A stretch of 64,000 nt of DNA, taken from a virus. Of the stretch, positions 905 through 56,804 are shown piece by piece (within the stretch, counting starts at the first letter, position 1; each line of letters opens with the position of its first letter). The position numbers were made by a program, and so were the translations under genes. The stretch lies in the UHGV virus genome UHGV-0038498; one strand, given 5' to 3'. The notes below the pieces were generated by a model. It had not been told where the DNA came from and searched no databases. It saw nothing but the letters and a program-made list of their open reading frames with translations.

Positions 905-1366
905 ATGACTATCAACACAGAAGTTTTTATCCGTCGAAATAAGCTTCGTCGTCACTTTGAGTCGGAGTTTCGTCAAATTAACAATGAGATTCGTGAGGCA
1001 TCAAAAGCAGCAGGGGTCTCATCGTTTCATCTAAAATATTCTCAGCATCTTCTTGATCGTGCAATTCAACGGGAGATTGATGAGACATATGTTTTTGAAT
1101 TATTCCACAAAATAAAAGACCATGTTTTAGAAGTTAATGAATTCCTGAGTATGCCTCCACGTCCTGACATTGACGAGGATTTTATTGATGGGGTTGAATA
1201 TCGTCCTGGACGTTTAGAAATCACAGATGGAAATCTTTGGCTTGGATTTACGGTTTGTAAACCTAATGCGAAGTTCAAAGACCCGTCACTTCAGTGCAGG
1301 ATGGCAATTATCAACAGTCGTCGTTTACCAGGAAAGGCTTCTAAAGCAGTAATTAAAACTCAATGA
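905..1366 (+). CDS. regB: RegB site-specific endoribonuclease
   Basis: 153 aa, start MTINTEVFIRRNKLRRHFESEF matches T4 RegB as recalled; early promoter directly upstream. Confidence 0.9.
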   Translation: MTINTEVFIRRNKLRRHFESEFRQINNEIREASKAAGVSSFHLKYSQHLLDRAIQREIDETYVFELFHKIKDHVLEVNEFLSMPPRPDIDEDFIDGVEYRPGRLEITDGNLWLGFTVCKPNAKFKDPSLQCRMAIINSRRLPGKASKAVIKTQ

Positions 1367-5188: not shown

Positions 5189-5212
5189 GTCTCCTTCGGG
5201 AGACTTTTTTCA
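5189..5212 (+). terminator. intrinsic terminator, UUCG tetraloop
   Basis: AGTCTCC-TTCG-GGAGACT then T6. Confidence 0.7.
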
Positions 5213-5214
5213 TT

Positions 5215-5255
5215 TTACCGGTTTACTTTCCATTTGAGCTGTGATACTATACAAC
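5215..5255 (+). promoter_or_regulatory. T4-type early promoter, cassette shared with 45542-45582
   Basis: TTTTTCATTTTACCGGTTTACTTTCCA repeated verbatim at both sites downstream of a UUCG terminator. Confidence 0.6.
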
Positions 5256-5278
5256 CATCGGATAAAGAGGAGAACATC

Positions 5279-5467
5279 ATGAAAATTGAAGCACTTAATC
5301 AAGAAGGAAATATCTACGTTATCATTAATGGTGATTTTTTCGTCGACATGGATGAAGTTACTAGTGAAGAACTTGTAGAACTTCTTAAGAAACGTTATGA
5401 TATGTGTGATGAAGCTGCAACTCATATGGCGTGTGCAATATTCTCTCTTTCATATGTGGTGGAATAA
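5279..5467 (+). CDS. hypothetical protein (62 aa)
   Basis: First ATG after early promoter 5215-5255 with GAGGAG SD. Confidence 0.55.
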
Positions 5468-6030: not shown

Positions 6031-6068
6031 CGGTTTACAAGTTGGCAAGGTTATGGTATAGTAATCTT
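6028..6068 (+). promoter_or_regulatory. T4-type early promoter
   Basis: GTTTAC ... TGGTATAGT; imperfect inverted repeat flanks -10. Confidence 0.55.
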
Positions 6069-6197
6069 GTCAACTGCCAAGGAGAAGAGAATGAAAGTTT
6101 TGTTTGTTGTGTATGTGATGATTCAATATAATTACCCGATGTTTACTTATAATCTGGTGAACAACATTATTGATATTATTCAAAGGAGTATGTAATT

Positions 6198-8766: not shown

Positions 8767-8768
8767 TA

Positions 8769-8793
8769 GGGAGCCTTCGGGCTCCCTTTTTTA
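8769..8793 (+). terminator. intrinsic terminator, UUCG tetraloop
   Basis: GGGAGCC-TTCG-GGCTCCC then T6. Confidence 0.75.
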
Positions 8794-8798
8794 TTTCA

Positions 8799-8850
8799 AA
8801 ATTTTTTCACAAAACGGTTTACAAGCATAAAGCTTTATGGTACTATACAA
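8799..8850 (+). promoter_or_regulatory. early promoter cassette, copy A
   Basis: A/T-rich UP element, GTTTAC, TGGTACTAT; 50 bp downstream identical to copy at 36009-36058. Confidence 0.65.
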
Positions 8851-8880
8851 CTATCAACTGATACGGATTTGGAGAATAAA

Positions 8881-9849
8881 ATGAAAACTGTAACTATCAA
8901 TAAGGGTATCTACTTCGGTAAAGAAATCTCTGGAACTTTTGAGCTCTTAGGCGAATGGTTCCCAGATAATGCTCCGGTAGATGCACAAGGAGATGGTAAA
9001 GTTTTTGTTGAAATTGACGGTAAACGTCGCGGTGTTTGGGTTTACAAATCAGATATTTCATATGATGGTGTAAAGGTTGAAGAAGTTAAAGAATCGTATG
9101 AAGATATGAAAACCCGCATTAATAAAAGATTTAATGTTATGGGAATGATGACGAATGGTATTATTAATGGAAATATTCGTTCATTAATTATCTCTGGCGC
9201 AGCAGGTATTGGTAAAACGTATTCTTTAGATAAAGCTTTGAATAAAGCAAATGATATTGGATACATTGAATATAAAAGCATTAATGGTAAAATCTCTGGT
9301 ATTGGTCTTTATGAGCAGCTTTGGAATAATCGTGAAGAGAATTCTGTCCTTTTGATTGATGATGTGGATGTTTTCTCTGATATGGACATTCTTAATCTTC
9401 TAAAAGCTGCTCTGGACACCGGAGAGACCCGTAAAGTCTGCTGGAGCACTGCGTCTTCTTACTTAGAAGAAAAAGGCATTGAGCGTGAGTTTGAATTTAA
9501 AGGAACGATTGTTTTTATCACAAACGTTGACATTGACCGCGAATTAGACCGTGGTACTAAACTTGCTCCACATTTACAAGCATTAGTGTCCCGCTCAGTT
9601 TATTTGGATTTGGGTGTTCACACTAATGAAGAAATTATGGTCAGGGTTGAAGATGTTATTCTTTCAACTGACATGATGCAAAAGCGCGGTCTTTCTGATG
9701 AAGAAACTTATAAAGCATTATCATGGATGAAAGTTAATGTTAACCGTTTGCGCAATGTTTCACTGCGTACTGCTCTTTATCTTGCTGACTTTATTATGAC
9801 CGACAAAAACGGTTGGGAAGAAATCGCTGAGGTTACTCTTCTGAAATAA
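8881..9849 (+). CDS. P-loop ATPase (AAA-like)
   Basis: Walker A GAAGIGKT, Walker B VLLIDDVD; first ATG after promoter cassette with GGAG SD. Confidence 0.65.
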   Translation: MKTVTINKGIYFGKEISGTFELLGEWFPDNAPVDAQGDGKVFVEIDGKRRGVWVYKSDISYDGVKVEEVKESYEDMKTRINKRFNVMGMMTNGIINGNIRSLIISGAAGIGKTYSLDKALNKANDIGYIEYKSINGKISGIGLYEQLWNNREENSVLLIDDVDVFSDMDILNLLKAALDTGETRKVCWSTASSYLEEKGIEREFEFKGTIVFITNVDIDRELDRGTKLAPHLQALVSRSVYLDLGVHTNEEIMVRVEDVILSTDMMQKRGLSDEETYKALSWMKVNVNRLRNVSLRTALYLADFIMTDKNGWEEIAEVTLLK

Positions 9850-9950: not shown

Positions 9951-10253
9951 ATGTTATACTCAAAGGCTCGTGAAATTTACGAAACTAAAATTAAAGAAGC
10001 AGTATTTCAGTTCGCAACGACAATGCGATGGACAAATGACTGGGAGTATTCAAAAAATCATAAGAAGCCCATGGTGACAAGAAAGGCTCATATGTTAGTG
10101 TTAATAGACCGTGAGCAGATTAAAGCCCGAGAAGCCCTCCAGAATCATAAAAAGGCTGCCTTTGAATGGTTTATGGATAACACTGCTCCTGAGACCAAGA
10201 AAGCGGTAAGTGCATGGTTCAGTGGAAAAAATTGTGAAAGAAGTTTCTTTTAG
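9951..10253 (+). CDS. hypothetical protein (100 aa)
   Basis: ATG 9951 preceded by GGAGG; track start 9939 also ATG. Confidence 0.5.
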   Translation: MLYSKAREIYETKIKEAVFQFATTMRWTNDWEYSKNHKKPMVTRKAHMLVLIDREQIKAREALQNHKKAAFEWFMDNTAPETKKAVSAWFSGKNCERSFF

Positions 10254-10292
10254 TGGTTTACAAGACTGTTCCTCTGTGGTACTATACAACTA
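10250..10292 (+). promoter_or_regulatory. early promoter cassette with stem-loop arms
   Basis: GTTTACAAGACTGTTCCTCTGTGGTACTAT; arms GTTCCTC/GAGGAAC. Confidence 0.6.
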
Positions 10293-10313
10293 TCAACTAC
10301 GGAGGAACACAAA

Positions 10314-10841
10314 ATGAACGCTAAAGATATTTTCAACTTGGTAAATTACAACGATGGTAAATTTAAATCTGAAGCGCAAAGCAAGTTCTTTAACGACATC
10401 TCAATCGGAGGTGAAATCACTGTTGATGGAGGACAAATTTACAAATCCCGTTGGAATTGGATCGTTATTATTGATGAGATCGGTATTGTAGAAATTTACA
10501 AAAATACGAATAAAAATCGTACATTGCACTGGTCTCGTGATACTAACGAACAGTACAAAAAGGATAAAGCATCTAAATTATCTCGTATAACTCAAGAAGA
10601 TATTGAGTTTATCAAGAAAGATATTTTAATGTATGATAACTTAATTGCTGAAGAGCAAGCTGTTATTGATAAATTTGACGAGATTAAAGCTTCTCGTGAA
10701 ATTCCTGATTTTATGAAAGAATCAGTAAATGAACGATACACTCTCATTTCAGAGCGTATTGAAACTTACAAAAAGCAAAGAGCTGAACGCCAAAATACTC
10801 TTCGGAAGTTTGAAGAACGGTTAAAGACGGTACTCGCATAA
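10314..10841 (+). CDS. hypothetical protein with C-terminal coiled coil (175 aa)
   Basis: Early promoter plus ACGGAGGA SD upstream; heptad-rich C-terminus. Confidence 0.6.
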   Translation: MNAKDIFNLVNYNDGKFKSEAQSKFFNDISIGGEITVDGGQIYKSRWNWIVIIDEIGIVEIYKNTNKNRTLHWSRDTNEQYKKDKASKLSRITQEDIEFIKKDILMYDNLIAEEQAVIDKFDEIKASREIPDFMKESVNERYTLISERIETYKKQRAERQNTLRKFEERLKTVLA

Positions 10842-13290: not shown

Positions 13291-14292
13291 ATGACTCGTA
13301 ACGAATATATCAAATCATTCAATAGCGTTATTGATGATAAAGTTAAACCCATGTCTAGTCAGAATGCTGTTCTTTCTATTATCAATCAATGGCTCAGCAG
13401 TATTGATGCAAGTATTGTTTCTTCCAGTAAATTTATTCATGAAGTTCGTGAAATTTCTAGCCGCGTAGATAAAGATGATATTAAGATAACCTTTAAAGGG
13501 TCTCGTCTTCTTTCATATTTGGTTAATCGGGATATTCTTGGTAATTTTGGGAAAGAAATTAAACGAACTAAAGGTGTAATAGGATACAATTGGTTCGGTG
13601 ATGTTAATTCTTATCATCTTAATATTAAAGAAGACCCTAAGAATATTTTTACTCGTCGTTGGATTAGTAATTTCAGACTTTTCAAGAAGCAACTTTTAAA
13701 ATCAGCTTCTAAATTATGTTATGGTGATTATCGTCAAATTCATCCTTTGGCTTCTGATATGATTATCGTAAAAGAATATGAGCTTGATAAAAATAAAGTA
13801 GCTATTTTTGTGAATTATGAATTTTTTACACCAGAAGCTAACCAAAGGAATATTAATAAATTTTTCTCAATTGCTAGCACTATAACTCATCAATTAGAAA
13901 CGGCTTTGGATTGTATGGAAACTGTAAAAAGTATTCATACATATCCTTTCAAAAATATGTGTGGTTGGGAAGGATATAAAATTATAGTTAGTCTCCGTGA
14001 AGTAAAGTGTGCGTACTCACCGACTAATAAAGAAATTTACCAACAAAAATGTGATGAAATTGTGAATACTCCTAAAGAAGAAACTACCCTTGAGGAACTA
14101 ATGGATAATCTTGACGATTCGCCTGAACCGCTAGAAATTCGTCCAGAAGTTATTGCACTAGAAAAAGCTTATAAAGAAGTTCTAGAAATTTCTAATAAAG
14201 CGCAGAAAGAATATGAACAGGCTAAAAGGATTTGGGAAGAATCTGTTAATCGTCTTGATCGTCTTGAACAAGCTTTACAGTTAATTAAGTAA
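13291..14292 (+). CDS. coiled-coil-tailed hypothetical protein, paralogue family member 3
   Basis: ATG after own early promoter and GAGGAG SD; motif FKKQLLKSASKLCYG. Confidence 0.65.
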   Translation: MTRNEYIKSFNSVIDDKVKPMSSQNAVLSIINQWLSSIDASIVSSSKFIHEVREISSRVDKDDIKITFKGSRLLSYLVNRDILGNFGKEIKRTKGVIGYNWFGDVNSYHLNIKEDPKNIFTRRWISNFRLFKKQLLKSASKLCYGDYRQIHPLASDMIIVKEYELDKNKVAIFVNYEFFTPEANQRNINKFFSIASTITHQLETALDCMETVKSIHTYPFKNMCGWEGYKIIVSLREVKCAYSPTNKEIYQQKCDEIVNTPKEETTLEELMDNLDDSPEPLEIRPEVIALEKAYKEVLEISNKAQKEYEQAKRIWEESVNRLDRLEQALQLIK

Positions 14293-14344
14293 TTTAAAGC
14301 CAAGGATGGCTTGGAGCATAAATCATTAACTAAGTGAGAAGAAT

Positions 14345-21641: not shown

Positions 21642-21842
21642 ATGAATCCTGAATCTAAATTATCGCAACGAATTGCTGAAGCTCGTCGTCAGTTCTTTGA
21701 AAATATGATAGCCCAAGGTATTGATGACGAAGTTTTTCTAAACTGGTTTTGGAATCACAAATATTCAAAATGCGCAGGAGCAATATTAATATCAGCTGCA
21801 ATGATGTACGAAGGCTGGAAGGGTGCCAAAAAATTTAGCTAA
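21642..21842 (+). CDS. hypothetical protein (66 aa)
   Basis: ORF track; terminator overlaps stop. Confidence 0.5.
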   Translation: MNPESKLSQRIAEARRQFFENMIAQGIDDEVFLNWFWNHKYSKCAGAILISAAMMYEGWKGAKKFS

Positions 21843-21859
21843 GGGCTTCGGCCCTTTTG
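21842..21859 (+). terminator. intrinsic terminator, UUCG tetraloop
   Basis: GGGC-TTCG-GCCC then TTTT. Confidence 0.65.
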
Positions 21860-21893
21860 GATAATAAAATTTTAATGTAATTGAGGATAATGT

Positions 21894-22220: not shown

Positions 22221-22438
22221 ATATGAATGAAGCTCTTATTAACGATTTGCGTCTTGCCGGATATGAAGTAAATACAAATGGCATTGGTTTAACTCAAATT
22301 GAAGGAAATGGATTCATCCTTGAGTATGAATTTAGCCAATGGTGGTTATACGCTAATTATGGCGAATTGATTGAATACGTTGACCAGTTTGATTCGTTAG
22401 ATGCAGCTCTTGAAGCGGCTAAGTTGATGAATGTATGA
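22217..22438 (+). CDS. hypothetical protein (73 aa)
   Basis: ORF track; ATGA overlap. Confidence 0.5.
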   Translation: MNMNEALINDLRLAGYEVNTNGIGLTQIEGNGFILEYEFSQWWLYANYGELIEYVDQFDSLDAALEAAKLMNV

Positions 22439-22704
22439 AATTTATTAATATTTCTATTACTATTGAAAATTATGGAATTTTCTATGTTGACCAATACATG
22501 AAAATTTCATTTTTCCCAAATAAGACTGGTGTTGGATATTGGGAAAGCCATGTTTCTGAATTAAATGAAAGTGAATATGCTAGCACACATGAAAAGTTTT
22601 TAGACTTTTTATATCATGCTGATTTAACTAGTCATTATATAGATATTCATGAATTTAAAAAGATGATGGAGAAAGTATTCCAAGCATACTGCTTACTTAG
22701 ATAA
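22435..22704 (+). CDS. hypothetical protein (89 aa)
   Basis: ORF track. Confidence 0.5.
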   Translation: MKFINISITIENYGIFYVDQYMKISFFPNKTGVGYWESHVSELNESEYASTHEKFLDFLYHADLTSHYIDIHEFKKMMEKVFQAYCLLR

Positions 22705-22782
22705 CTGATATCCTCTATGCTTTAAGATAGATCTTCAAATATTATGATATAATAGATCTATGAATTGAGCTAAGAGGTGAAA

Positions 22783-24276: not shown

Positions 24277-25479
24277 ATGAAAGTATGCATTTTTATGGCT
24301 CGAGGTCTTGAAGGTTGTGGCGTAACTAAATTTTCTCTTGAGCAACGTGATTGGTTTATTAAAAATGGTCATGAAGTAACTTTGGTTTATGCTAAAGATA
24401 AATCATTTACCCGTAATTGCGCGCATGATTATAAGTCATTTTCAATTCCGGTTTTATTGGCAAAAGAATACGATAAAACACTTAAGTTGGTAAATGATTG
24501 TGATATTCTAATTATCAATTCAGTTCCTGCTACTTCAGTCGAAGAAGACACTATTAATAACTATAAAAAAATTATTGATAACATTAAACCTTCGGTTCGT
24601 GTTGTAGTTTATCAACATGACCATTCTTCTCTTTCTTTGCGTCGAAATTTGGGATTAGAAGAAACTGTTCGCCGAGCTGATGTTATTTTTAGTCATTCTG
24701 ATAATGGTGATTTTAATAAAGTTCTGATGAAAGAATGGTATCCAGAAACTGTTTCACTGTTTGATGATATTGAAGAAGCACCGACCGTATACAACTTTCA
24801 GCCTCCTATGGATATTGCGAAGGTTCGATCAACCTACTGGAAAGATGTTTCTGAAATTAACATGAATGTCAACCGTTGGATTGGTCGTACGACTACATGG
24901 AAAGGTTTTTATCAGATGTTTGATTTTCACGAAAAACATCTTAAACCTGCAGGACTAAGTACTATTATGGAAGGTCTGGAACGTTCTCCAGCGTTCATTC
25001 CTATTAAAGAAAAAGGAATTCCATACGAGTATTATCGTCTTCATCAAGTAGACCAAATTAAAATTGCTCCTAATTTGCCAACGCAAATTCTCGACCGTTA
25101 TGTAAATAGCGAAATGCTTGAACGCATGAGTAAATCCGGATTTGGTTATCAGTTGAGTAAGTTGGACAAAAAATATCTACAACGTTCTTTAGAATATACT
25201 CATCTCGAGCTTGGCGCATGTGGAACAATTCCAGTATTTTGGAAATCTACTGGCGAAAATTTAAAATTCCGTGTTGATAATACTCCGTTAATTTCTCATG
25301 ATAGTGGTATCGTTTGGTTTGATGAAAATGACATGGAATCAACATTTGAGCGTATTAAAGAACTGTCATCTGACCGAGCTCTTTATGACCGTGAACGCGA
25401 AAAAGCTTATGAATTTTTGTATCAGCACCAAGATTCAAGCTTCTGCTTTAAAGAACAGTTTGACATTATTACAAAATAA
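24277..25479 (+). CDS. a-gt: DNA alpha-glucosyltransferase
   Basis: 400 aa, same length as T4 alpha-gt; MotA-box promoter upstream, terminator downstream. Confidence 0.9.
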   Translation: MKVCIFMARGLEGCGVTKFSLEQRDWFIKNGHEVTLVYAKDKSFTRNCAHDYKSFSIPVLLAKEYDKTLKLVNDCDILIINSVPATSVEEDTINNYKKIIDNIKPSVRVVVYQHDHSSLSLRRNLGLEETVRRADVIFSHSDNGDFNKVLMKEWYPETVSLFDDIEEAPTVYNFQPPMDIAKVRSTYWKDVSEINMNVNRWIGRTTTWKGFYQMFDFHEKHLKPAGLSTIMEGLERSPAFIPIKEKGIPYEYYRLHQVDQIKIAPNLPTQILDRYVNSEMLERMSKSGFGYQLSKLDKKYLQRSLEYTHLELGACGTIPVFWKSTGENLKFRVDNTPLISHDSGIVWFDENDMESTFERIKELSSDRALYDREREKAYEFLYQHQDSSFCFKEQFDIITK

Positions 25480-25496
25480 AGGGCTTCGGCCCTTTA
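25478..25496 (+). terminator. intrinsic terminator, UUCG tetraloop
   Basis: AAAGGGC-TTCG-GCCCTTT after a-gt stop. Confidence 0.65.
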
Positions 25497-25520
25497 GCTT
25501 TATACGGAGTTTGATATAAT
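25495..25520 (+). promoter_or_regulatory. putative middle promoter (gene 47)
   Basis: TAGCTTTA, 12 bp, TATAAT. Confidence 0.45.
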
Positions 25521-27122: not shown

Positions 27123-28807
27123 AGAATTTTAAACTAAACCGAGTTAGGTATCAAAATATAATGTCAGTAGGTGGAAATCCTATTGACATTCAACTAGATA
27201 AGGTTCAAAAAACTCTTATTACTGGCCGAAATGGTGGTGGTAAGTCTACTATGTTAGAAGCCATCACATTTGGGCTTTTTGGCAAGCCATTTCGTGATGT
27301 AAAGAAAGGTCAATTAATAAACAGCACAAATAAGAAAGAACTTTTAGTTGAACTGTGGATGGAATATGATGAGAAAAAGTATTATATCAAAAGAGGACAA
27401 AAACCAAACGTTTTCGAAATCACCGTTAACGGTACACGTCTTAATGAATCTGCCAGCAGTAAAGATTTCCAAGCAGAATTTGAACAGCTTATCGGAATGT
27501 CATATGCCAGTTTCAAGCAGATTGTTGTCCTTGGTACAGCAGGGTATACCCCTTTCATGGGTTTGTCGACCCCTGCGCGAAGAAAGCTTGTGGAAGACCT
27601 GCTCGAGGTAGGAACATTAGCTGAAATGGATAAGCTCAATAAAGCACTAATACGTGAATTAAATTCACAAAACCAAGTGCTTGATGTTAAAAAAGATAGT
27701 ATTATCCAGCAAATTAAAATATATAATGATAACGTTGAACGCCAGAAAAAATTAACTGGTGATAACCTTACTCGTCTACAGAATATGTATGATGATTTGG
27801 CAAAAGAAGCTAGAACGTTAAAATCGGAAATAGAAGAAGCTAATGAAAGATTAGTTAATATTGTTTTGGATGAAGACCCGACTGATGCATTTAATAAAAT
27901 CGGTCAAGAAGCATTTTTAATTAAATCAAAAATTGACTCGTATAATAAAGTCATTAATATGTATCACGAAGGTGGATTATGTCCAACCTGTTTGTCACAA
28001 TTAAGTTCCGGCGATAAAGTTGTTTCTAAAATTAAAGATAAAGTTTCTGAATGCACGCATTCGTTTGAACAGCTTTCAACACATCGTGATAATTTAAAAG
28101 TTCTTGTTGATGAATACCGAGATAATATTAAAACCCAGCAGACGTTGGCGAATGATATTCGCAATAAAAAGCAATCTTTAATCACGACTGTAGATAAAGC
28201 TAAAAAAGTTAAAGCAGCTATAGAAAAAGCATCATCCGAGTTTATTGACCATGCTGATGAAATAGCACTGCTTCAAGAAGAACTTGATAAAATTGTTAAG
28301 ACAAAAACTAATTTAGTAATGGAAAAATACCATAGAGGAATTTTGACTGATATGCTCAAAGATTCTGGTATTAAAGGTGCTATTATTAAAAAGTACATTC
28401 CATTATTTAATAAGCAGATTAACCATTATCTTAAAATAATGGAAGCGGATTATGTGTTTACATTAGATGAAGAATTTAATGAGACAATTAAATCCCGCGG
28501 TCGCGAAGATTTTAGTTATGCTTCATTTAGTCAAGGTGAAAAAGCACGAATTGATATTGCTCTTTTATTTACTTGGCGTGATATTGCTGAAAAAGTTTCA
28601 GGTGTTAAAATAAGTTGTTTATTTCTTGATGAAGTGTATGACGGTGCATTTGACGCTGAAGGTATTAAAAATGTGGCTAAAATTTTAGACGGTTTGAAGG
28701 ATACCAACTTCTTCATAATTTCGCATAAAGACCATGACCCACAGGAATATGGTCAGCACATTCAAATGGAAAAAGTTGGTAGATTTAGTTTAGCTAAGAT
28801 TAGCTAG
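27119..28807 (+). CDS. 46: recombination ATPase gp46 (Rad50/SbcC-like)
   Basis: 562 aa; Walker A GRNGGGKST, coiled-coil middle with CPTC hook; GTG start. Confidence 0.92.
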   Translation: MKNFKLNRVRYQNIMSVGGNPIDIQLDKVQKTLITGRNGGGKSTMLEAITFGLFGKPFRDVKKGQLINSTNKKELLVELWMEYDEKKYYIKRGQKPNVFEITVNGTRLNESASSKDFQAEFEQLIGMSYASFKQIVVLGTAGYTPFMGLSTPARRKLVEDLLEVGTLAEMDKLNKALIRELNSQNQVLDVKKDSIIQQIKIYNDNVERQKKLTGDNLTRLQNMYDDLAKEARTLKSEIEEANERLVNIVLDEDPTDAFNKIGQEAFLIKSKIDSYNKVINMYHEGGLCPTCLSQLSSGDKVVSKIKDKVSECTHSFEQLSTHRDNLKVLVDEYRDNIKTQQTLANDIRNKKQSLITTVDKAKKVKAAIEKASSEFIDHADEIALLQEELDKIVKTKTNLVMEKYHRGILTDMLKDSGIKGAIIKKYIPLFNKQINHYLKIMEADYVFTLDEEFNETIKSRGREDFSYASFSQGEKARIDIALLFTWRDIAEKVSGVKISCLFLDEVYDGAFDAEGIKNVAKILDGLKDTNFFIISHKDHDPQEYGQHIQMEKVGRFSLAKIS

Positions 28808-29516
28808 GTTTATATTTACAGTTATCATTATGCCATCTTGATAAATTTCCGAAAGTGGTAACTTTACCACAATGGACGCAAGTACCAGTCTTTTCAGTTT
28901 TCTTGCGTCCATTTGGATTTTTCTTGCAGAAATTTCTATGCGCTGCGATAACGCATTTCTTGCCTATCATTCCGCAGAATTCGCAGGATGTTTCTTCAAG
29001 AACGATTGCTTTAAGCCCGTTTGAGATATTATTTCTGTGTTCTTTAGACATTGGCGGTCTAACTTTAGGATTGGGATGATTTGGGCAGTTATCAAAATGC
29101 CATCGATTCATATTCCCGCTTAATCCAGACTTACCGCAATGTGGACAAGTTAGTCTTGCTTTATTAGCTACTGCATCGGACATTTTCTTTCGTGTCTCTT
29201 GGGAGAACTCTTTATTCTTTTCTATTTCCCAGAGTTTACGACGAATCCAGCCGAAAGTTTTATTGTTACGTTTAGCGTATTTCGTAGAAACTGTCATCAT
29301 GTTAGCAGCATAGACTAATTTTGGTTCAGAAGGATAAATTTTTACTAAAAGTTGATGAGCTACATAGTGCTCTTCTGGTGTTAAATCTACTAAGTTTGAA
29401 GCATCATCGCTGCCATTTAAACAGCGTGGTATAATGTGATGAGATTCAGTATAGCAATCAAGTTTTCGAGATTTAGCATTAGAGATTAACTTTTCATAAA
29501 TTAGTTTATAATTCAT
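28800..29516 (-). mobile_element. free-standing HNH homing endonuclease gene, antisense to flanking genes
   Basis: 238 aa; HNH core ESHHIIPRCLNG..N..EEHYVAHQ; three CxxCG..(RWH.DNC) Zn-knuckles; AAAGGA SD and TATAAATA on minus strand. Confidence 0.8.
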
Positions 29517-29549
29517 AACATATCCTTTTGATACAGCGAGTGATAAACA

Positions 29550-29557
29550 TATTTATA
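29550..29557 (-). promoter_or_regulatory. late promoter TATAAATA on minus strand (HNH endonuclease)
   Basis: Plus-strand TATTTATA, about 30 nt upstream of minus-strand ATG at 29516. Confidence 0.5.
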
Positions 29558-29567
29558 CGGAGGAACT

Positions 29568-29759
29568 GTGGCAGAATATTCAACTGGACAGCATCTATTA
29601 ACTATTCCTGAAATAAAACGATATATTCTGAGAAATAATTTTTCTAATGAAGAGCATATAGTTACTGAATCTATGCTTAAGAATGCATTTAAATCAGAAT
29701 ATACGAAAATAATGTCCAACAGAAATGAAGCTTGGACTGTTACTGATTATTATGACTAA
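29568..29759 (+). CDS. hypothetical protein (63 aa), 45.2-like
   Basis: GTG start after ACGGAGGA. Confidence 0.55.
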   Translation: MAEYSTGQHLLTIPEIKRYILRNNFSNEEHIVTESMLKNAFKSEYTKIMSNRNEAWTVTDYYD

Positions 29760-30213: not shown

Positions 30214-30900
30214 ATGAAACTGTCTAAAGATACTACTGCTCTGCTCAAAAATTTCGCTACTATTAACTCTGGTATTATGCTTAAATCTGGTCAATTTATT
30301 ATGACTCGCGCAGTTAATGGTACAACTTATGCGGAAGCAAATATTTCTGACACTATTGATTTTGATGTAGCAATTTACGATTTGAACGGTTTTCTCGGTA
30401 TTCTGTCTCTAGTTAATGACGATGCAGAAATTTCCCAGTCAGAAGATGGAAATATTAAAATTGCTGATGCCCGTTCAACAATTTTTTGGCCAGCAGCCGA
30501 TCCGAGTACAGTAGTTGCTCCTAATAAACCGATTCCATTCCCGGTAGCATCTGTTGTTACCGAAATTAAAGCTGAAGACCTTCAACAGCTATTGCGTGTA
30601 TCTCGCGGTCTGCAGATTGATACAATTGCTATCACAGTAAAAGAAGGTAAAATCGTAATTAACGGTTTTAATAAAGTAGAAGATTCTGCTTTGACCCGTG
30701 TTAAATATTCTTTGACTCTTGGTGATTATGATGGTGAAAATACATTTAATTTCATTATCAATATGGCAAATATGAAAATGCAACCAGGAAATTATAAACT
30801 TCTGCTCTGGGCAAAAGGTAAACAAGGCGCTGCTAAATTTGAAGGTGAACATGCGAATTATGTAGTAGCTCTTGAAGCTGATTCTACCCACGATTTTTAA
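30214..30900 (+). CDS. 45: sliding clamp gp45
   Basis: 228 aa, MKLSKDTTALLKNFATINSGIMLKSGQFIM matches T4 gp45. Confidence 0.95.
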   Translation: MKLSKDTTALLKNFATINSGIMLKSGQFIMTRAVNGTTYAEANISDTIDFDVAIYDLNGFLGILSLVNDDAEISQSEDGNIKIADARSTIFWPAADPSTVVAPNKPIPFPVASVVTEIKAEDLQQLLRVSRGLQIDTIAITVKEGKIVINGFNKVEDSALTRVKYSLTLGDYDGENTFNFIINMANMKMQPGNYKLLLWAKGKQGAAKFEGEHANYVVALEADSTHDF

Positions 30901-30902
30901 TA

Positions 30903-30919
30903 GAGGGCTTCGGCCCTTT
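30903..30919 (+). terminator. intrinsic terminator, UUCG tetraloop
   Basis: AGGGC-TTCG-GCCCT then TTT, after gene 45. Confidence 0.65.
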
Positions 30920-30951
30920 ATAATTTACACTAAAACTTGAATGAGGAAATT

Positions 30952-32846: not shown

Positions 32847-32856
32847 GGCAAATTAT

Positions 32857-33093
32857 ATGACACAATCAGAGATTCAGTTTACCGAAGCTTTTCTAATATT
32901 CGAAAATCTAAAACAAACATATGGTCTGTCTTCTACCCAACTGGTTTTTGACCTCCCGGAAGATAAACAAATAGAATTCCAAAAAGAATTCCAACGATTA
33001 GTTTACCCGCACCAGCTCGCATTTCATGCGATTATCAAAACCACAAATAAAGATGGCAAGTCCGTTATATCGCGTCGCACAATAGAAATTTAA
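32857..33093 (+). CDS. hypothetical protein (78 aa)
   Basis: In-frame ATG of track ORF 32836; terminator follows. Confidence 0.5.
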   Translation: MTQSEIQFTEAFLIFENLKQTYGLSSTQLVFDLPEDKQIEFQKEFQRLVYPHQLAFHAIIKTTNKDGKSVISRRTIEI

Positions 33094-33097
33094 AGCA

Positions 33098-33119
33098 AAG
33101 GGGCTTCGGCCCCTTATTT
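33098..33119 (+). terminator. intrinsic terminator, UUCG tetraloop
   Basis: AAGGGGC-TTCG-GCCCCTT upstream of gene 43. Confidence 0.65.
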
Positions 33120-33173
33120 GGAGTATAATATATCAAGAGCCTAATAACTCGGGCTATAAACTAAGGAATATCT

Positions 33174-35882: not shown

Positions 35883-35904
35883 AGGGACCTCCGGGTCCCT
35901 TTTT
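35883..35904 (+). terminator. intrinsic terminator
   Basis: AGGGACC-TCCG-GGTCCCT then TTTT after gene 43. Confidence 0.7.
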
Positions 35905-35969
35905 CATACAAGTAATATAAATCTATACTTAGGAAAAATAGATGATTCTAGGTCCTGTAAATTCATTAA

Positions 35970-36022
35970 AAATTTTTTCACAAAACTGTTTACATCCCTG
36001 TTCTTCCATGGTACTATACAAC
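35970..36022 (+). promoter_or_regulatory. early promoter cassette, copy B
   Basis: Same UP element, GTTTAC and -10/5'UTR as 8799-8887. Confidence 0.65.
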
Positions 36023-36051
36023 TATCAACTGATACGGATTTGGAGAATAAA

Positions 36052-36309
36052 ATGAAAATTGTTTATGGTTGTTTAGCAGCGTGTTTAGTTGCATTAGCAG
36101 TTGTTCTAGTTGCATTAGCAGCTGTTCCATTTATTGATATTGAAAATGACACTCAGAATGTGATTGAATCTAATACTGTTATTCACATGAATGGTAAAGT
36201 ATCAACAAAAATTGATGATAATCTTCATATGAATACTAATGGAACGCTGGGTGTTCAATTAGGTAATACCTGTGTAAGCACTACTGGAGTAATTACTACT
36301 TGTATTTGA
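36052..36309 (+). CDS. small exported/membrane protein (85 aa)
   Basis: First ATG after promoter cassette; hydrophobic N-terminus CLAACLVALAVVLVALAAV. Confidence 0.55.
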   Translation: MKIVYGCLAACLVALAVVLVALAAVPFIDIENDTQNVIESNTVIHMNGKVSTKIDDNLHMNTNGTLGVQLGNTCVSTTGVITTCI

Positions 36310-36319
36310 GGAAATTGTT

Positions 36320-36700
36320 ATGAAAATCGCTATTTTGGTTATTGCATTGGGTCTTACTGGCTGCGTAGCTCAAGGACCGGTAGTAAATCAATCTGATGTA
36401 GGAAAAATTGTAAACTGTTCAAGCAAATTTTATAATCCTAATGTTAAGTGTTATAAAGAAGCTCCAAAACAGACAGTAGAACAAATGCAGGCGAATTTTG
36501 ACGAAGCTATTCGTCCAGATGAATCTGCTCAAGCATATCGTAATTCAGATGTAATTACACGCGAAGAAAAAATTGAAAACTACTGCGCCGAACTTTGGGC
36601 TAATTGGGCTAATAATTACCAATGGCGTACAGGTAAAAATGCTCCGATGGAGTATGTAGTGAATTCTTATAATTCATGTGTAAAAAATTTGACTAAGTGA
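36320..36700 (+). CDS. predicted lipoprotein (126 aa)
   Basis: Signal peptide with lipobox LTGC; GAGGAAA SD. Confidence 0.6.
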   Translation: MKIAILVIALGLTGCVAQGPVVNQSDVGKIVNCSSKFYNPNVKCYKEAPKQTVEQMQANFDEAIRPDESAQAYRNSDVITREEKIENYCAELWANWANNYQWRTGKNAPMEYVVNSYNSCVKNLTK

Positions 36701-40297: not shown

Positions 40298-41725
40298 GTG
40301 GTAGAAATTATTCTTTCTCATCTCATATTTGATCAAGCTTATTTTTCAAAAGTTTGGCCATATATGGATTCAGAATATTTTGAAAGTGGTCCAGCTAAAA
40401 ATACATTCAAATTAATTAAATCTCATGTTAATGAATACCATAGCGTTCCATCTATTAATGCGTTAAATGTTGCGCTAGAAAATAGTTCATTTACTGAAAC
40501 AGAATATTCTGGTGTAAAAACACTTATTTCGAAACTAGCCGATTCTCCAGAAGACCACAGCTGGTTAGTAAAAGAAACAGAAAAATATGTTCAGCAAAGG
40601 GCGATGTTTAATGCTACGTCTAAAATAATTGAAATTCAAACCAATGCTGAGCTTCCTCCGGAAAAACGAAATAAGAAAATGCCGGATGTTGGTGCTATTC
40701 CTGACATCATGCGCCAAGCATTATCAATTTCATTTGATAGTTATGTTGGTCATGATTGGATGGATGACTACGAAGCACGTTGGCTATCTTATATGAATAA
40801 AGCTCGTAAGGTTCCATTTAAACTCAAAATTCTAAATAAAATTACTAAAGGCGGAGCTGAAACTGGAACACTGAACGTTTTAATGGCCGGTGTTAACGTT
40901 GGTAAGTCATTAGGTCTGTGTTCATTAGCAGCAGATTATTTGCAGCTCGGACATAATGTTCTTTACATTTCCATGGAAATGGCAGAAGAAGTCTGTGCTA
41001 AGCGTATTGATGCTAATATGCTTGATGTTTCTCTCGATGACATTGATGACGGGCATATTTCTTACGCTGAGTATAAAGGAAAAATGGAAAAATGGCGTGA
41101 GAAATCTACTCTCGGTCGTTTAATCGTTAAACAGTATCCTACTGGTGGAGCAGACGCTAATACATTTCGATCTCTTTTAAACGAATTAAAGCTCAAGAAG
41201 AATTTTGTTCCAACAATCATTATTGTTGACTATCTGGGTATTTGTAAATCTTGCCGCATCAGAGTTTATTCAGAAAATAGTTACACAACTGTTAAAGCCA
41301 TCGCAGAAGAATTGCGTGCTCTTGCTGTTGAAACCGAAACTGTTCTTTGGACTGCAGCGCAGGTTGGTAAGCAAGCTTGGGATTCTTCTGATGTTAACAT
41401 GAGCGATATTGCAGAATCTGCCGGTCTTCCAGCAACAGCCGATTTTATGCTTGCGGTCATTGAAACCGAGGAGTTAGCAGCTGCTGAACAACAACTAATT
41501 AAGCAAATCAAATCACGATATGGTGATAAGAATAAATGGAATAAGTTTTTGATGGGTGTTCAAAAAGGAAATCAGAAATGGGTAGAAATTGAGCAAGATT
41601 CTACTCCAACCGAAGTGAACGAAGTAGCAGGTTCACAGCAGATTCAGGCTGAACAGAATCGTTATCAAAGAAACGAATCCGCTCGAGCTCAGTTAGATGC
41701 TTTGGCAAATGAATTAAAATTTTAG
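40298..41725 (+). CDS. 41: replicative DNA helicase gp41 (DnaB-like)
   Basis: 475 aa, MVEIILSHLIFDQAYFSKVWPYMD matches T4 gp41; Walker A GVNVGKS; GTG start. Confidence 0.95.
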   Translation: MVEIILSHLIFDQAYFSKVWPYMDSEYFESGPAKNTFKLIKSHVNEYHSVPSINALNVALENSSFTETEYSGVKTLISKLADSPEDHSWLVKETEKYVQQRAMFNATSKIIEIQTNAELPPEKRNKKMPDVGAIPDIMRQALSISFDSYVGHDWMDDYEARWLSYMNKARKVPFKLKILNKITKGGAETGTLNVLMAGVNVGKSLGLCSLAADYLQLGHNVLYISMEMAEEVCAKRIDANMLDVSLDDIDDGHISYAEYKGKMEKWREKSTLGRLIVKQYPTGGADANTFRSLLNELKLKKNFVPTIIIVDYLGICKSCRIRVYSENSYTTVKAIAEELRALAVETETVLWTAAQVGKQAWDSSDVNMSDIAESAGLPATADFMLAVIETEELAAAEQQLIKQIKSRYGDKNKWNKFLMGVQKGNQKWVEIEQDSTPTEVNEVAGSQQIQAEQNRYQRNESARAQLDALANELKF

Positions 41726-41758
41726 TTTACAAGCCGACAAGACTATGGTATAGTAGTC
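41720..41758 (+). promoter_or_regulatory. T4-type early promoter with palindrome around -10
   Basis: GTTTACAAG; AAGACTA-tggtatag-TAGTCTT inverted repeat. Confidence 0.55.
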
Positions 41759-41783
41759 TTGTTGGTTAAATGAGGAGATTGTT

Positions 41784-41966
41784 ATGGAATTGGTAAAGGT
41801 AGTTTTTATGGGGTGGTTTAAGAACGAAAGCATGTTTACTAAAGAAATCACAATGATGAAAGATGACGTTCAATGGACTACTAATCAATATGCTGAAGTT
41901 AATAAAGCACTAGTTAAAGCTTTCATTGATGACAAGAAAGTATGCGAAGTGGATTGCCGAGGATAA
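41784..41966 (+). CDS. dmd: Dmd-like antitoxin (inhibitor of RnlA/LsoA), T4 61.5 position
   Basis: 60 aa, first gene after 41 with own early promoter; assignment from recalled T4 order. Confidence 0.6.
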   Translation: MELVKVVFMGWFKNESMFTKEITMMKDDVQWTTNQYAEVNKALVKAFIDDKKVCEVDCRG

Positions 41967-45511: not shown

Positions 45512-45537
45512 AAGGACTCCTTCGGGAGTCCTTTTTT
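45512..45537 (+). terminator. intrinsic terminator, UUCG tetraloop
   Basis: AAGGACTCC-TTCG-GGAGTCCTT then T5 after soc. Confidence 0.75.
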
Positions 45538-45541
45538 CATT

Positions 45542-45582
45542 TTACCGGTTTACTTTCCAAAATGAGTATGATATAATAGAAT
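45542..45582 (+). promoter_or_regulatory. T4-type early promoter, cassette shared with 5215-5255
   Basis: GTTTAC ... GATATAAT. Confidence 0.6.
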
Positions 45583-45603
45583 TATCTTATAGAGGAGAGC
45601 ACT

Positions 45604-45810
45604 ATGTTAAATCGCTGGATTAAACCAAATGAAGATTTAGATATTATCATTTCACGGCATGTAATGAAGAAATATGAACTACAGCCATGGTCTACAGAAG
45701 TTGTTGTGCATTCATTTATGATGTACGCAGATGGTTCTGTTGAATTTAATGCAGAGATTCGATATGATTATGGCGAGAAGCAAGTTGAATTCAAAAGAGG
45801 CTTTTTGTAA
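45604..45810 (+). CDS. hypothetical protein (68 aa)
   Basis: ORF track; early promoter and GAGGAG SD upstream. Confidence 0.55.
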   Translation: MLNRWIKPNEDLDIIISRHVMKKYELQPWSTEVVVHSFMMYADGSVEFNAEIRYDYGEKQVEFKRGFL

Positions 45811-47640: not shown

Positions 47641-47680
47641 AAAGTTGTTTACTTTCCTTCCTAACAATGATATGATAGCT
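47641..47680 (+). promoter_or_regulatory. T4-type early promoter (modB)
   Basis: GTTTAC ... TGATATGAT. Confidence 0.5.
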
Positions 47681-47702
47681 TCTGAAGTATACGGAGGCTA
47701 TC

Positions 47703-48326
47703 ATGATTATTAATCTTGCAGATGTTGAACAGTTATCTATAAAAGCTGAAAGTGTCGATTTTCAATATGATATGTATAAAAAGGTCTGTGAAAAATTTAC
47801 TGACTTTGAACAGTCAGTTCTTTGGCAATGTATGGAAGCCAAAAAGAATGAAGCTCTTCATCAGCAGTTGAATAAAATCGTTAAAAAGCATTTAACTAAA
47901 TCACCTTATCAGCTATATCGTGGTATATCAAAATCTACAAAAGAACTCATTAAAGATTTACAAGTCGGAGAAGTGTTTTCAACGAACAGAGTAGATTCAT
48001 TTACTACTAGTTTGCATACAGCATGTGGTTTTTCTTATGTTGAATATTCCACTGAAATAATATTTCGCTTAAAAACTGATAAAGCTTTTAATTACTCTGA
48101 CCATATCAGCGATATTATACTTTCTTCTCCTAATACTGAGTTTAAGTATACATATGAAGATACTGATGGATTAGATTCAGAACGTACTGATAACTTAATG
48201 ATGATTGTACGTGAACAAGAATGGATGATTCCAATTGGAAAGTATAAAATAACTTCTATTTCAAAAGAAAAATTACACGATTCGTTTGGAACATTTAAAG
48301 TGTATGATATTGAGGTAGTTGAATGA
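47703..48326 (+). CDS. modB: ADP-ribosyltransferase ModB
   Basis: 207 aa; R-S-E motifs (LYRGISK, FSTNRVDSFTTS, REQEWMIP); matches T4 ModB length. Confidence 0.75.
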   Translation: MIINLADVEQLSIKAESVDFQYDMYKKVCEKFTDFEQSVLWQCMEAKKNEALHQQLNKIVKKHLTKSPYQLYRGISKSTKELIKDLQVGEVFSTNRVDSFTTSLHTACGFSYVEYSTEIIFRLKTDKAFNYSDHISDIILSSPNTEFKYTYEDTDGLDSERTDNLMMIVREQEWMIPIGKYKITSISKEKLHDSFGTFKVYDIEVVE

Positions 48327-52834: not shown

Positions 52835-52875
52835 AAAGTTGTTTACTTCCTCGGTTAGTTGTGGTATTATAACAC
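52835..52875 (+). promoter_or_regulatory. T4-type early promoter
   Basis: GTTTAC ... TGTGGTATTAT. Confidence 0.55.
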
Positions 52876-52897
52876 CATAGCTACTGAGGATAATAAA

Positions 52898-53398
52898 ATG
52901 AAAATTTATCGTGTTGAATCATCGTTTAGTATTCTTGATTATGAAGATGCTATAACAATACGTCGAAATCTTTGTGTTCAAATAACGCCGTACAGGAGTA
53001 TAATAGATTCATGGAGCGAAGAGTGGCTATTACGTGTAGGTTATAGTAGACCTAATTTTATGCATCATAGCGATGATAATAAAAGAATTCCTGTACCACA
53101 TGAAGATAAACTATTAGTTAAAAACGCTAATATAGTAATTAATACTAAGTTCAATAAAGATTATGTTGGAGTAGAATATCATATTCCAGGATGGTTTATA
53201 GCTCTTTATCATTTTGCTTTCGCTAGCGAATATGATATGATGAGATGGTTCACACGAGAAGAGCGTGAAGAATTATCTTCTAAAGGATTTTATCTTGCTG
53301 TATACGAAGTGCCAGATGACCAAGTTATCATTGGCGGACACCAAGTAATGTTCCGTAAATCCCATGCTGAACTTGTAGATTTTATTGAAATGAGATAA
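52898..53398 (+). CDS. hypothetical protein (166 aa)
   Basis: First ATG after early promoter; GAGGA SD. Confidence 0.55.
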   Translation: MKIYRVESSFSILDYEDAITIRRNLCVQITPYRSIIDSWSEEWLLRVGYSRPNFMHHSDDNKRIPVPHEDKLLVKNANIVINTKFNKDYVGVEYHIPGWFIALYHFAFASEYDMMRWFTREEREELSSKGFYLAVYEVPDDQVIIGGHQVMFRKSHAELVDFIEMR

Positions 53399-53943: not shown

Positions 53944-53980
53944 TAGTTTACAAACTCTTGGGACCAGAGTATAATGGTCC
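53940..53980 (+). promoter_or_regulatory. T4-type early promoter with palindrome around -10
   Basis: GTTTAC; GGACCA-gagtataa-TGGTCC perfect 6-bp inverted repeat. Confidence 0.55.
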
Positions 53981-54019
53981 TGTGGAGTATAAAATCTTTT
54001 TAACAAGTGAGAGATAACT

Positions 54020-54508
54020 ATGATTATTAATATTGGTGAATTAGCTCGTGTATCTGATAAATCCCGTTCTAAAGCAGCAGGAAAATTGGTCGAAATTGTA
54101 AGCATTCAGCTTAAACATGGCGTTAAAGATGAAGATTCTGAAGTAAAAGTGCGTATCATTCCTAAAGATGGAAAGTCTAAACCTCAGTTTGGCTATGTTC
54201 GTGCGAAATTTCTTGAGTCTGCGTTTTTGAAAGCTGTTCCTGCTAAAGGAATTGAAACGATTGATACTTCGCATGTAGGTGTAGACTTTAAGTGGAAACT
54301 CGGTCAGGCTATTAAGTTCATTGCTCCTTGTGAATTTAAATTTATCAAAGATGATGGTTTGGCTGTTTATACTCGTGCTATGTGTGCATACATTACCGAC
54401 CAGTGGGTAGAAGACGGTGTTAAGCTGTATAATGTGGTATTTTTAGGAACATACAAAGTCATTCCTGAAAGCTGGATTAAACACTATAGCAAAGCTCTCT
54501 ATGCATAA
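54020..54508 (+). CDS. MotB-like protein (162 aa)
   Basis: KOW-like N-terminus, C-terminal DQWVEDGVKLYNVV block; T4 MotB is also 162 aa, identity unverified. Confidence 0.55.
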   Translation: MIINIGELARVSDKSRSKAAGKLVEIVSIQLKHGVKDEDSEVKVRIIPKDGKSKPQFGYVRAKFLESAFLKAVPAKGIETIDTSHVGVDFKWKLGQAIKFIAPCEFKFIKDDGLAVYTRAMCAYITDQWVEDGVKLYNVVFLGTYKVIPESWIKHYSKALYA

Positions 54509-54524: not shown

Positions 54525-54944
54525 ATGAATATTGTAAATCTATCTACTGGTGATTACGTATATGTATCCGTTGCTTCTCGTTCTAAAGTTGCAGGAAAGC
54601 TGGTTGAAGTTCTTTCTGTAAGTGATCCAGTTTTTGGTCGTAACGAGGTTAAAGTTCGTGACGCTGATGGTAACATTGGTTATGTCTCAAGCCAATTCAT
54701 TGAGCCAGAAGAAAGCGCGTTTAAATGGAAACTTTGTTCTTCAGTTTTAGTTGTAAAAGACCATAAATTCACAATTGCGGCAGCAACAGATGGAACTCCA
54801 TGGACAACGAATCAAGTCGCTGGTTTTATTTCGGACCGTTGGGTAGAAGATGGCGTCAAGCTCTACAATATTGTTTTTGCAGGCCAGTTCATGGTAGTTC
54901 CTGAATTCCAAATTAAAAAATGGTGCGAAGCAGCTTTAGCATAA
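54525..54944 (+). CDS. MotB-like paralogue (139 aa)
   Basis: N-terminus and C-terminal DRWVEDGVKLYNIV block parallel preceding ORF. Confidence 0.55.
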   Translation: MNIVNLSTGDYVYVSVASRSKVAGKLVEVLSVSDPVFGRNEVKVRDADGNIGYVSSQFIEPEESAFKWKLCSSVLVVKDHKFTIAAATDGTPWTTNQVAGFISDRWVEDGVKLYNIVFAGQFMVVPEFQIKKWCEAALA

Positions 54945-54974
54945 ATTTGCATAAAGCTTAAAATTTTTTCATAA

Positions 54975-55035
54975 AACTATATACATCAGTAGTTGATTAT
55001 GGTACTATATCAATATCAACTACTGATACAGAAAA
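54975..55035 (+). promoter_or_regulatory. promoter/stem-loop cassette
   Basis: 11-bp perfect inverted repeat CAGTAGTTGAT...ATCAACTACTG enclosing TGGTACTAT; 3' end TTGGAGAATAAAATG shared with other cassettes. Confidence 0.5.
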
Positions 55036-55051
55036 CAACTTGGAGAATAAA

Positions 55052-55321
55052 ATGGAAAACTTAATTATCATCGAACAATCTTTCAACGATTATGGTATGG
55101 CTTATGGTTATCGTGCGATAATGGAAGATTCTCGTGGATGTGTTATCGATATTGCAGAATGTAAAGATTTACTGCAGCTTTTGAAGATTGTTCGCAAAAA
55201 TTGGGATTGTGAAAACATTAAAGCTCGTGTTGTAACGGAAGAAGAAACTGTTTTTCATGATGTAAAATTCGCCAAAGGTGCTGCTACTCTTCTGAAACGC
55301 ATCGCTCCACTGTTCAATTAA
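55052..55321 (+). CDS. hypothetical protein (90 aa)
   Basis: First ATG after stem-loop promoter cassette. Confidence 0.5.
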   Translation: MENLIIIEQSFNDYGMAYGYRAIMEDSRGCVIDIAECKDLLQLLKIVRKNWDCENIKARVVTEEETVFHDVKFAKGAATLLKRIAPLFN

Positions 55322-56787: not shown

Positions 56788-56804
56788 AAGGCCTTCGGGC
56801 CTTT
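56787..56804 (+). terminator. intrinsic terminator, UUCG tetraloop
   Basis: AAAGGCC-TTCG-GGCCTTT. Confidence 0.65.

Follow-up and report, generated by a model that had tools for sequence, protein, structure and literature searches.

The early (immediate-early) promoters of phage T4 have reportedly been described by Liebig and Rueger in 1989 and by Miller et al. in 2003. Here we analyze a repeated element that closely resembles them, which stands before a homologue of the T4 gene nrdC.10 and again 27 kb away in UHGV virus genome UHGV-0038498; the stretch analyzed, hereafter the window, is 64,000 nucleotides long, and all coordinates refer to it. The T4 early promoter class has been characterized as 'UP/-35/TGn/-10' (Hinton 2010, PMC2988021). 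A related system is the promoter-early-stem-loop (PeSL) cassette, found in phi1/RB49 (Arbiol et al. 2010, PMC2839356) and in PST/T4 and nt-1/KVP40 (Comeau et al. 2014, PMC4122927), which figure legends of these papers define as a composite of stem-loop, AT-rich region, -35/-10 boxes, Shine-Dalgarno (SD) sequence and ATG (Fig. 3 legend of PMC4122927; Fig. 2 legend of PMC2839356). The commonest PeSL type in Arbiol et al. has its stem-loop between or overlapping the promoter boxes; such stem-loops are called terminators there, and translation is not discussed (PMC2839356). Excised mini-circles that form during infection, assayed by inverse PCR, belong to the same picture of PeSLs (PMC2839356). 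Hairpins that sequester a ribosome-binding site and contain an internal promoter are known from T4 e, soc, 49 and I-TevI (McPheeters et al. 1986, reviewed in PMC3014915). Finally, the target of the T4 endoribonuclease RegB acting with S1 follows the consensus GGAGRAYARAA, with the cut expected between G and A, as stated in passages of Uzan and Miller 2010 (PMC3014915) and of PMC1702504. Both T4 early promoters and PeSL cassettes are therefore already known, the latter having been published for the T4/PST pair in 2014.

We consider it quite probable that the repeat unites a T4-type immediate-early promoter with its leader and translation-initiation region, that is, a portable cassette of the PeSL type, which occasionally acts as a patch for ectopic recombination.

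Two exact copies of an early-promoter cassette

A reading of the window from its sequence only (the sequence-only reading) had reported a 50-bp repeat, identical at 8838-8887 and 36009-36058. These are the only two exact matches of the 50-mer in the window, and the identical run is even one nucleotide longer, reaching 51 nt (8837-8887 and 36008-36058); none of 100 dinucleotide shuffles contained a 50-mer match. As that reading had also claimed, the same A/T-rich UP element and GTTTAC -35 box precede both copies, in the form AAAATTTTTTCACAAAAC(G/T)GTTTACA, and the 15 nt between the -35 box and TGG differ between them. For comparison we took 21 early-type promoters of the plus strand, comprising 20 GTTTAC-N18-TAnnnT sites and one with a degenerate -35, which form 210 pairs. 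Leader identity averaged 0.33 (sd 0.12) over these pairs and reached 0.97 for the two exact copies, while the longest shared exact run had a median of 9 nt against 51 nt for the exact copies. Because the pair is an outlier in both leader identity and run length, the repeat is real and goes well past a generic early-promoter consensus; the copies are far closer to each other than unrelated early promoters are, a point on which the sequence-only reading had staked its case.

Copy 1 (8798-8887, plus strand) is the promoter and leader of nrdC.10 and lies between nrdC.11 and nrdC.10. It consists of the UP region (8798-8816), the -35 box GTTTAC (8817-8822), a TG-extended -10 TGGTACTAT (8838-8846), and a combined RegB/S1 site and SD, GGAGAATAAAA (8871-8881), which runs into the ATG at 8881. 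Just upstream, a terminator hairpin of the form GGGAGCC-TTCG-GGCTCCC followed by a T run (8768-8787, plus strand) ends the nrdC.11 transcription unit, and the gene behind the cassette (8881-9849, plus strand) encodes the NrdC.10 homologue, a protein of 322 aa with weak AAA/STAND NTPase-like matches. Copy 2 (35969-36058, plus strand) follows gene 43, encoding DNA polymerase, and a terminator hairpin behind that gene (35883-35900, plus strand), and has the same order of parts: UP 35969-35987, -35 35988-35993, -10 TACTAT 36012-36017, RegB/S1 site and SD 36042-36052, and ATG 36052. It opens ORF85 (open reading frame of 85 aa with a hydrophobic N-terminus, phrog_4189; 36052-36309, plus strand), which stands between the cassette and imm.1 (36320-36700); in T4 the homologous cassette directly precedes imm.1.

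A consensus scan found TTTACA-17-TACTAT, with the 17-bp spacer of sigma-70 promoters, at 8818-8846, 35989-36017 and 10257-10285, and flagged a TG extension of the -10 at both exact copies. Both copies thus combine the -35/-10 spacing, the TGn motif and the A/T-rich UP region of a T4-type early promoter, and they have the AT-rich region, promoter boxes and 3'-terminal SD and ATG of the PeSL composite. The -10 is followed by a conserved start region ACAACTATCAAC, a leader of ~28 nt without structure, and GGAGAATAAAA-TG-AAA. The fold of the transcribed leader reaches -2.6 kcal/mol (z = -0.4), and the segment from spacer to ATG folds no better than shuffled sequence in either copy (z = +0.7 and +0.6).

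The shared 3' end, GGAGAATAAAA-TG, is at once an SD and a perfect match to the RegB/S1 consensus. That consensus has three exact matches in the window, at 8871, 36042 and 55042, against 0.55 expected by chance, and all three are the SD sites of cassettes with the same, A-type leader (the third is described below). Passages of Durand et al. 2006 (PMC1702504) give GGAGAAUAAAA as the optimum needed for efficient RegB cleavage, and relate that a resistant GGAG became cleavable in vivo once AAUAAAA was grafted behind it (PMC1702504). The window encodes regB itself (905-1366, plus strand; PF10715, E = 1.4e-68), whose product is the predicted trans-acting nuclease of the GGAGAATAAAA sites, and the SD is predicted to be unpaired with a probability of 0.84-0.92 in the cassettes' own transcripts, presenting the RegB site in single-stranded form. 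From the consensus matches and the T4 literature, we infer that the cassette is active as a promoter and is cleaved by RegB. The sequence of events would be that host sigma-70 RNA polymerase fires the cassette immediately after infection, that the free SD allows efficient translation, and that within minutes RegB cuts the SD at the same 11 nt and turns the message off. RegB would in this way end the immediate-early burst, and the net effect would be a short pulse of a small accessory protein encoded downstream.

Hundreds of Tequatrovirus genomes (the T4/T2/T6 group) match the window at 95-99% identity, and the plus strand of the window is the early-gene strand. T4 carries the same cassette, base for base, before nrdC.10, and its imm.1 cassette is nearly identical to copy 2, except that it has three extra nucleotides (ACT), a G in place of one A, and a spacer that differs in part. 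A search of the phage collection found the 50-mer at 597 places in 373 records, one to three per genome, and all of these fall at three loci: nrdC.10, imm.1 and denB/ndd. A scan of IMG/VR for the A-type leader pattern returned 5 loci only, too few for population statistics, and the annotation of a related genome labels the homologous sites as T4 early promoters. Since T4 also has the pair and the 50-mer recurs in 373 records at three loci, the pair is, judging from these comparisons, an old genus-wide feature that did not arise recently in this genome. A perfect match of 51 nt between two distant sites might by itself have suggested a recent private duplication, an error of assembly or a regulatory RNA with a defined structure. 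The T4 copy and the 373 records, from independently sequenced phages, rule out the first two, and the third finds neither an Rfam family match anywhere in the window nor a fold better than shuffled sequence at the repeat; of all explanations weighed here, this group has the smallest probability, next to nil.

Mosaic cassettes and gene differences

The sequence-only reading had listed further, related copies near 10250, 62948 and 63455 and a shared 3' end near 55037-55054, all of which were recovered. The shared 3' end, TTGGAGAATAAAATG at 55040-55054, proved to belong to a full third A-type cassette in the motB-cef interval (54960-55054, plus strand), with a degenerate -35 ATATAC (54979-54984), a -10 at 55003-55008 enclosed by a 13-bp hairpin (54985-54997/55015-55027), a RegB/S1 site at 55042-55052 and an ATG at 55052, which starts ORF89 (55052-55321, plus strand; phrog_3720). 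The cassette of nrdC.8 is of a second, B type (10243-10316, plus strand; -35 10256-10261, -10 10280-10285, ATG 10314), and its hairpin arms lie in the promoter spacer (10267-10280) and around the SD GGAGG (10296-10309). A second B-type cassette (63448-63521, plus strand; -35 63461-63466, -10 TATTAT 63485-63490) precedes a 37-aa ORF with its ATG at 63519, and its arms (63471-63485/63501-63515) likewise bury the SD. The cassette of the denB-ndd region (62935-63013, plus strand) has the same UP/-35/-10 core TACTATACAACTATCA joined to a different leader GCTACGGAGGAGTAAAAATG and is followed by ORF87 (63011-63274, plus strand; ATG 63011), and a cassette of mobD.5 type with a related core TACTATACAACCATCG is found at 5204-5281 (plus strand). 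These early promoter and 5'-untranslated cassettes precede accessory genes, in agreement with the claim that each lies at the 5' boundary of one.

A separate 29-nt exact repeat, CTTTTTTCATTTTACCGGTTTACTTTCCA, occurs at 5204-5232 and 45531-45559 and covers the terminator tail, UP region and -35 of two early promoters. This pair shares its 5' half; the main 51-nt run instead covers the -10 and leader.

We compared the window with five relatives (T4, LF73P3, BCH953P4, KNP1 and part of ERS-1), taking breakpoints from high-scoring segment pairs of at least 85% identity and at least 150 nt, and classing the conserved 54979 cassette by eye. Homology with relatives breaks inside four cassettes, those at 8817, 35988, 54979 and 62954. 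In copy 1, LF73P3 has an insert of 1.15 kb that brings three ORFs and two more cassettes (break 8822|8869), and BCH953P4 has a 66-aa ORF with its own promoter (8857|8871). In copy 2, T4 and BCH953P4 break at 36059|36320 and are without ORF85. At the denB-ndd cassette, T4 is without ORF87 (63001|63242) and LF73P3 carries a different ORF (62996|63003), while at the third A-type cassette all five relatives have the interior of ORF89 deleted directly after ATGGAAAA (55062|55260), with a remnant left in place.

The cassettes are mosaics around a shared core TGGTACTATACAACTATCA, their 5' and 3' halves being re-assorted across loci and phages, as expected of the chimeric cassettes described for PeSLs. 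In T4 and LF73P3 the denB/ndd 5' half runs into an A-type leader; in the window and KNP1 it runs into a B'-type leader. Within the LF73P3 insert, the 5' half of T4 motA, identical in its spacer, is joined to an A-type leader. Of 39 nt in the leader of the T4 ndd locus, 38 agree with the leader of T4 imm.1, and the agreement extends to the ACT insert, ATGAAAATCGCT and even the first imm.1 codons. These mosaics are good comparative evidence that the cassettes have exchanged sequence ectopically. It was also observed that 18 nt within the 3' end of ORF87 (63248-63265, AATGAAATGAAAATCGCT) equal the ribosome-binding region and start of T4 imm.1 and mark, on the right-hand side, the junction of the deletion or conversion that T4 has at the ORF87 locus. 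Indels end within 4 of the 6 cassettes that have the TACTATACAAC(T/C)ATC core and in 0 of the 13 other early promoters, so that all six cassette-associated events fall in core-sharing cassettes, a pattern that would fit homology-driven exchange. The core TGGTACTATACAACTATCA(ACT) and the common 3' end might together provide enough homology for occasional ectopic recombination, which would have re-assorted the cassette halves and inserted, swapped or deleted the ORF directly downstream. The exact copies themselves would then be old paralogues that have stayed nearly unchanged across the genus.

Several results weigh against a strong role in recombination. Early promoters take part in 6 of 42 distinct indel events, when 6.6 +/- 2.3 are expected (P = 0.67) from random sets of 19 among the 125 gene junctions; 4 of 62 breakpoints fall in cassette bases, which make up 3.2% of bases (p = 0.13); and the excess in core-sharing cassettes, 4/6 against 33/119 for other junctions, gives a Fisher p of 0.06 in a post hoc comparison with five relatives. 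The ORF85 indel (36059|36320) does not have a cassette on each side, only the 8-nt repeat ATGAAAAT. Gene gain and loss in the window occurs mostly at sites such as ordinary gene boundaries and homing-endonuclease genes. Furthermore, copy 1 is invariant in six genomes and four variants of copy 2 occur, none of them mirrored in copy 1, so there is no sign of continuing concerted evolution of the exact copies, a possibility that was considered but finds no support in this pattern, and the 51-nt identity may mostly reflect purifying selection on an old duplication, as the distribution of variants suggests. The arms of the stem-loops, too, stand at two cassettes only, where they span the -10 and bury the SD only in read-through RNA. 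Finally, T4 and other relatives keep remnants of ORF89 and ORF87, and because these remnants persist in T4, both cases are losses in the relatives and not recent gains in the window.

Some of these results would also be expected under pure functional constraint, in which the cassettes are alike because selection acts on every part, recombination has no special role, and the indels are ordinary gene-boundary events. The missing enrichment over early promoters as a whole, the 33/42 events that end at some gene-start zone, the use of ATGAAAAT alone at ORF85, and the invariance of copy 1 next to unshared variants of copy 2 all agree with it. However, the early promoters of the comparison set have the same function and yet show about a third of the leader identity of the exact copies; identical 5' halves with different leaders, and the reverse, are seen at orthologous and non-orthologous loci alike; the T4 ndd-locus leader has imm.1-specific bases down to the first codons; and breaks are confined to core-sharing cassettes among the 19 early promoters. 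We therefore hold constraint as the whole explanation to be improbable, though it is the most serious competitor of a cassette that serves as an occasional homology patch.

Much less probable still is an integron-like, site-specific system in which ORF cassettes are moved by a phage recombinase that recognizes the cassette or its stem-loop, a speculation that Arbiol et al. 2010 raised for PeSL stem-loops (PMC2839356). The clustering of junctions between the -10 and the ATG would fit it, but junction positions vary (in the core, after ATGAAAA, in the spacer), no recombinase is linked to the cassettes, conserved structure is lacking in the exact copies, the majority of indels in the window lie elsewhere, and T4 general recombination uses short homologies (cited in PMC2839356).

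The claim that the repeats are recombination joints bounding recently acquired modules hence holds in part: breaks in four cassettes and mosaic halves speak for joints, but class-wide enrichment was not found. 'Recently acquired' is wrong for at least two loci, given the ORF89 and ORF87 remnants in T4, and nrdC.10 and nrdC.8 are conserved there. The proposed PeSL-like behavior fares similarly, in that the published description fits and the downstream ORFs are variable, but the early-promoter class is not enriched for indels. Against roughly 534 close relatives, the phage records that have ORF85, ORF87 and ORF89 number 319, 371 and 261, respectively, or roughly half to two-thirds; the genes behind the cassettes are accordingly not universally conserved in the same order.

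Other gene differences were noted in the window. A 139-aa ORF at 54525-54944, directly after motB, is a second MotB-like gene (phrog_1671); this insert is missing in all five relatives and is flanked by the repeat TGCATAAAG(T/C)TTAA. A 245-nt segment with a 78-aa ORF between regA and gene 43 (32847-33093), also missing in all five, ends at a GGGGCTTCGGCCCC hairpin (33093-33122). Near-identical GGGCTTCGGCCC terminator hairpins with a UUCG tetraloop occur at 21835-21864, 25473-25502, 30897-30926, 33093-33122, 56782-56811, 62057-62084 and 62292-62321, and a 207-nt insertion in KNP1 and LF73P3 adjoins one of them (window 62366-62370). BCH953P4 shares a 786-nt segment that lies between gene 46 and the rpbA/45 region (28787-29574), and T4, LF73P3, KNP1 and ERS-1 have ~72 nt in its place. 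A 1-kb stretch of the nrdC.4 region (13310-14336) is missing in LF73P3 and BCH953P4, and an 89-aa ORF (22435-22704; difference at 22449-22710) is missing in T4, BCH953P4 and ERS-1; neither place has an early promoter.

Stem-loop arms and spacer-leader helices

Stem-loop arms of the form GTTCCTC...GAGGAAC had been ascribed to three related copies. They are present at two, 10256 and 63461 (-20.2 and -23.2 kcal/mol; z = -6.1 and -6.0), and absent from the copy at 62954 (RNA fold z = -1.0). GTTCCTC sits in the -35/-10 spacer and GAGGAAC contains the SD; since the 5' arm is upstream of the -10, the cassette's own transcript cannot form the helix. The SD is predicted to be unpaired with a probability of 0.00 in read-through RNA and of 0.77-0.79 in the cassette's own transcript. 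Within the 10256/63461 family all changes in the arms keep the pairing, while the loop, which includes the -10, differs at five positions. In these B-type cassettes, the spacer would thus pair with the SD, leaving read-through RNA closed to translation and the cassette's own transcript open. A role of the B-type hairpins as intrinsic terminators is unlikely, as no U-tract follows the stem. According to passages of PMC1702504, the nrdC.8 SD, which belongs to a B-type leader, is moderately cleaved by RegB in T4; a figure legend of the same paper names the T4 mobD.5 and motB promoters, homologous to those of the window, as mapped.

The stem-loop of the PeSL composite is accordingly represented in two ways, by the upstream terminators at the exact copies and by stem-loops overlapping the -10 at 10256, 63461 and 54979 (z about -6), and no embedded stem-loop was found inside either exact copy. 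A helix burying the SD was found in silico at 10256, 63461, 848, 45548, 47647 and 52841 but not at the exact copies, where the SD is unpaired with a probability of 0.75 at 8817 and the helix at 35988 is weak and non-significant. The duplex of spacer and own leader has a mean energy of -12.0 kcal/mol (p = 2e-4 by permutation of partners), and reaches -10 kcal/mol or lower in 9/19 early promoters compared with 7/106 control gene starts. Such helices are conserved: at 6033/41725 pairing holds in 100% of cells, three pairs are compensatory, and many are G-U, a type of pair that works only on the sense strand. Helices spanning their own -10, with minimum free energies of -12 to -25 kcal/mol, were also observed at 848-905, 6033-6091, 41725-41784, 45548-45604, 47647-47703, 52841-52898 and 53946-54020, and at several of them, among these the promoter of regB at 848, the SD forms the 3' arm.

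It would be tempting to generalize these cases. We put forward, tentatively and as a possibility somewhat short of an even chance, that in about half of the early promoters of this phage group the spacer is complementary to the promoter's own leader or SD, giving a helix whose loop holds the -10, which, if it acts in RNA, might limit translation of many immediate-early ORFs to transcripts from the ORF's own promoter and shield RegB sites in read-through RNA. If true, the late-promoter logic of e, soc, 49 and I-TevI would extend to early genes, and PeSL stem-loops would have a translational rather than a terminator role.

Comparison with known systems

A T4-like phage appears to pack a promoter, a ribosome-binding site and an RNase-mediated off-switch into a unit of ~90 bp, which is reused before small accessory genes and which may occasionally become a homology patch for gene swapping. 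This could be useful for the annotation of Tequatrovirus genomes and for the design of early-expression cassettes in engineered T4. At the same time, the PeSL model is tempered, as most gene gain and loss in this 64-kb region occurs without early promoters.

With the T4 early promoters, the pair shares the GTTTAC(A) -35, the 17-bp spacer, the TG-extended -10, the A/T-rich upstream region and the location on the early strand before early genes. Nothing essential sets it apart from them, and it is unusual only in that the duplication extends to the leader and ribosome-binding region. Its 11-nt GGAGAAUAAAA-type sequence, predicted to be single-stranded, doubles as an early-gene SD in a genome with regB, as in the RegB/S1 sites of T4 early mRNAs; the difference is that cleavage at these particular sites is predicted.

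The hairpins of e, soc, 49 and I-TevI, the closest functional precedent, resemble those at 10256, 63461 and four to five other early promoters, where the helix would bury the SD in long transcripts and the promoter lies inside the helix, leaving its own transcript without the 5' arm. Unlike theirs, the internal promoter is here early and not late, the exact copies are excluded, and the helices are predicted in silico.

The PeSLs are likewise composites repeated through variable regions, and the window's cassettes fit the PST/T4 consensus TTTACW-N17-TAYWAT, have their crossovers between the -10 and the ATG, and adjoin small ORFs that are variably present. They differ in that the exact copies have a separate upstream terminator as their only stem-loop, that the embedded stem-loops of the other cassettes lack a U-tract and have the SD as their 3' arm, and that the share of indels at early promoters (6/42, without class-wide enrichment) stands against the 10/14 reported for phi1/RB49 (PMC2839356). 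To these known systems our analysis adds the exact match of the shared 3' end to the RegB optimum, explicit evidence of mosaicism, a negative test of class-wide enrichment, and a clarification of the roles of the two arms.

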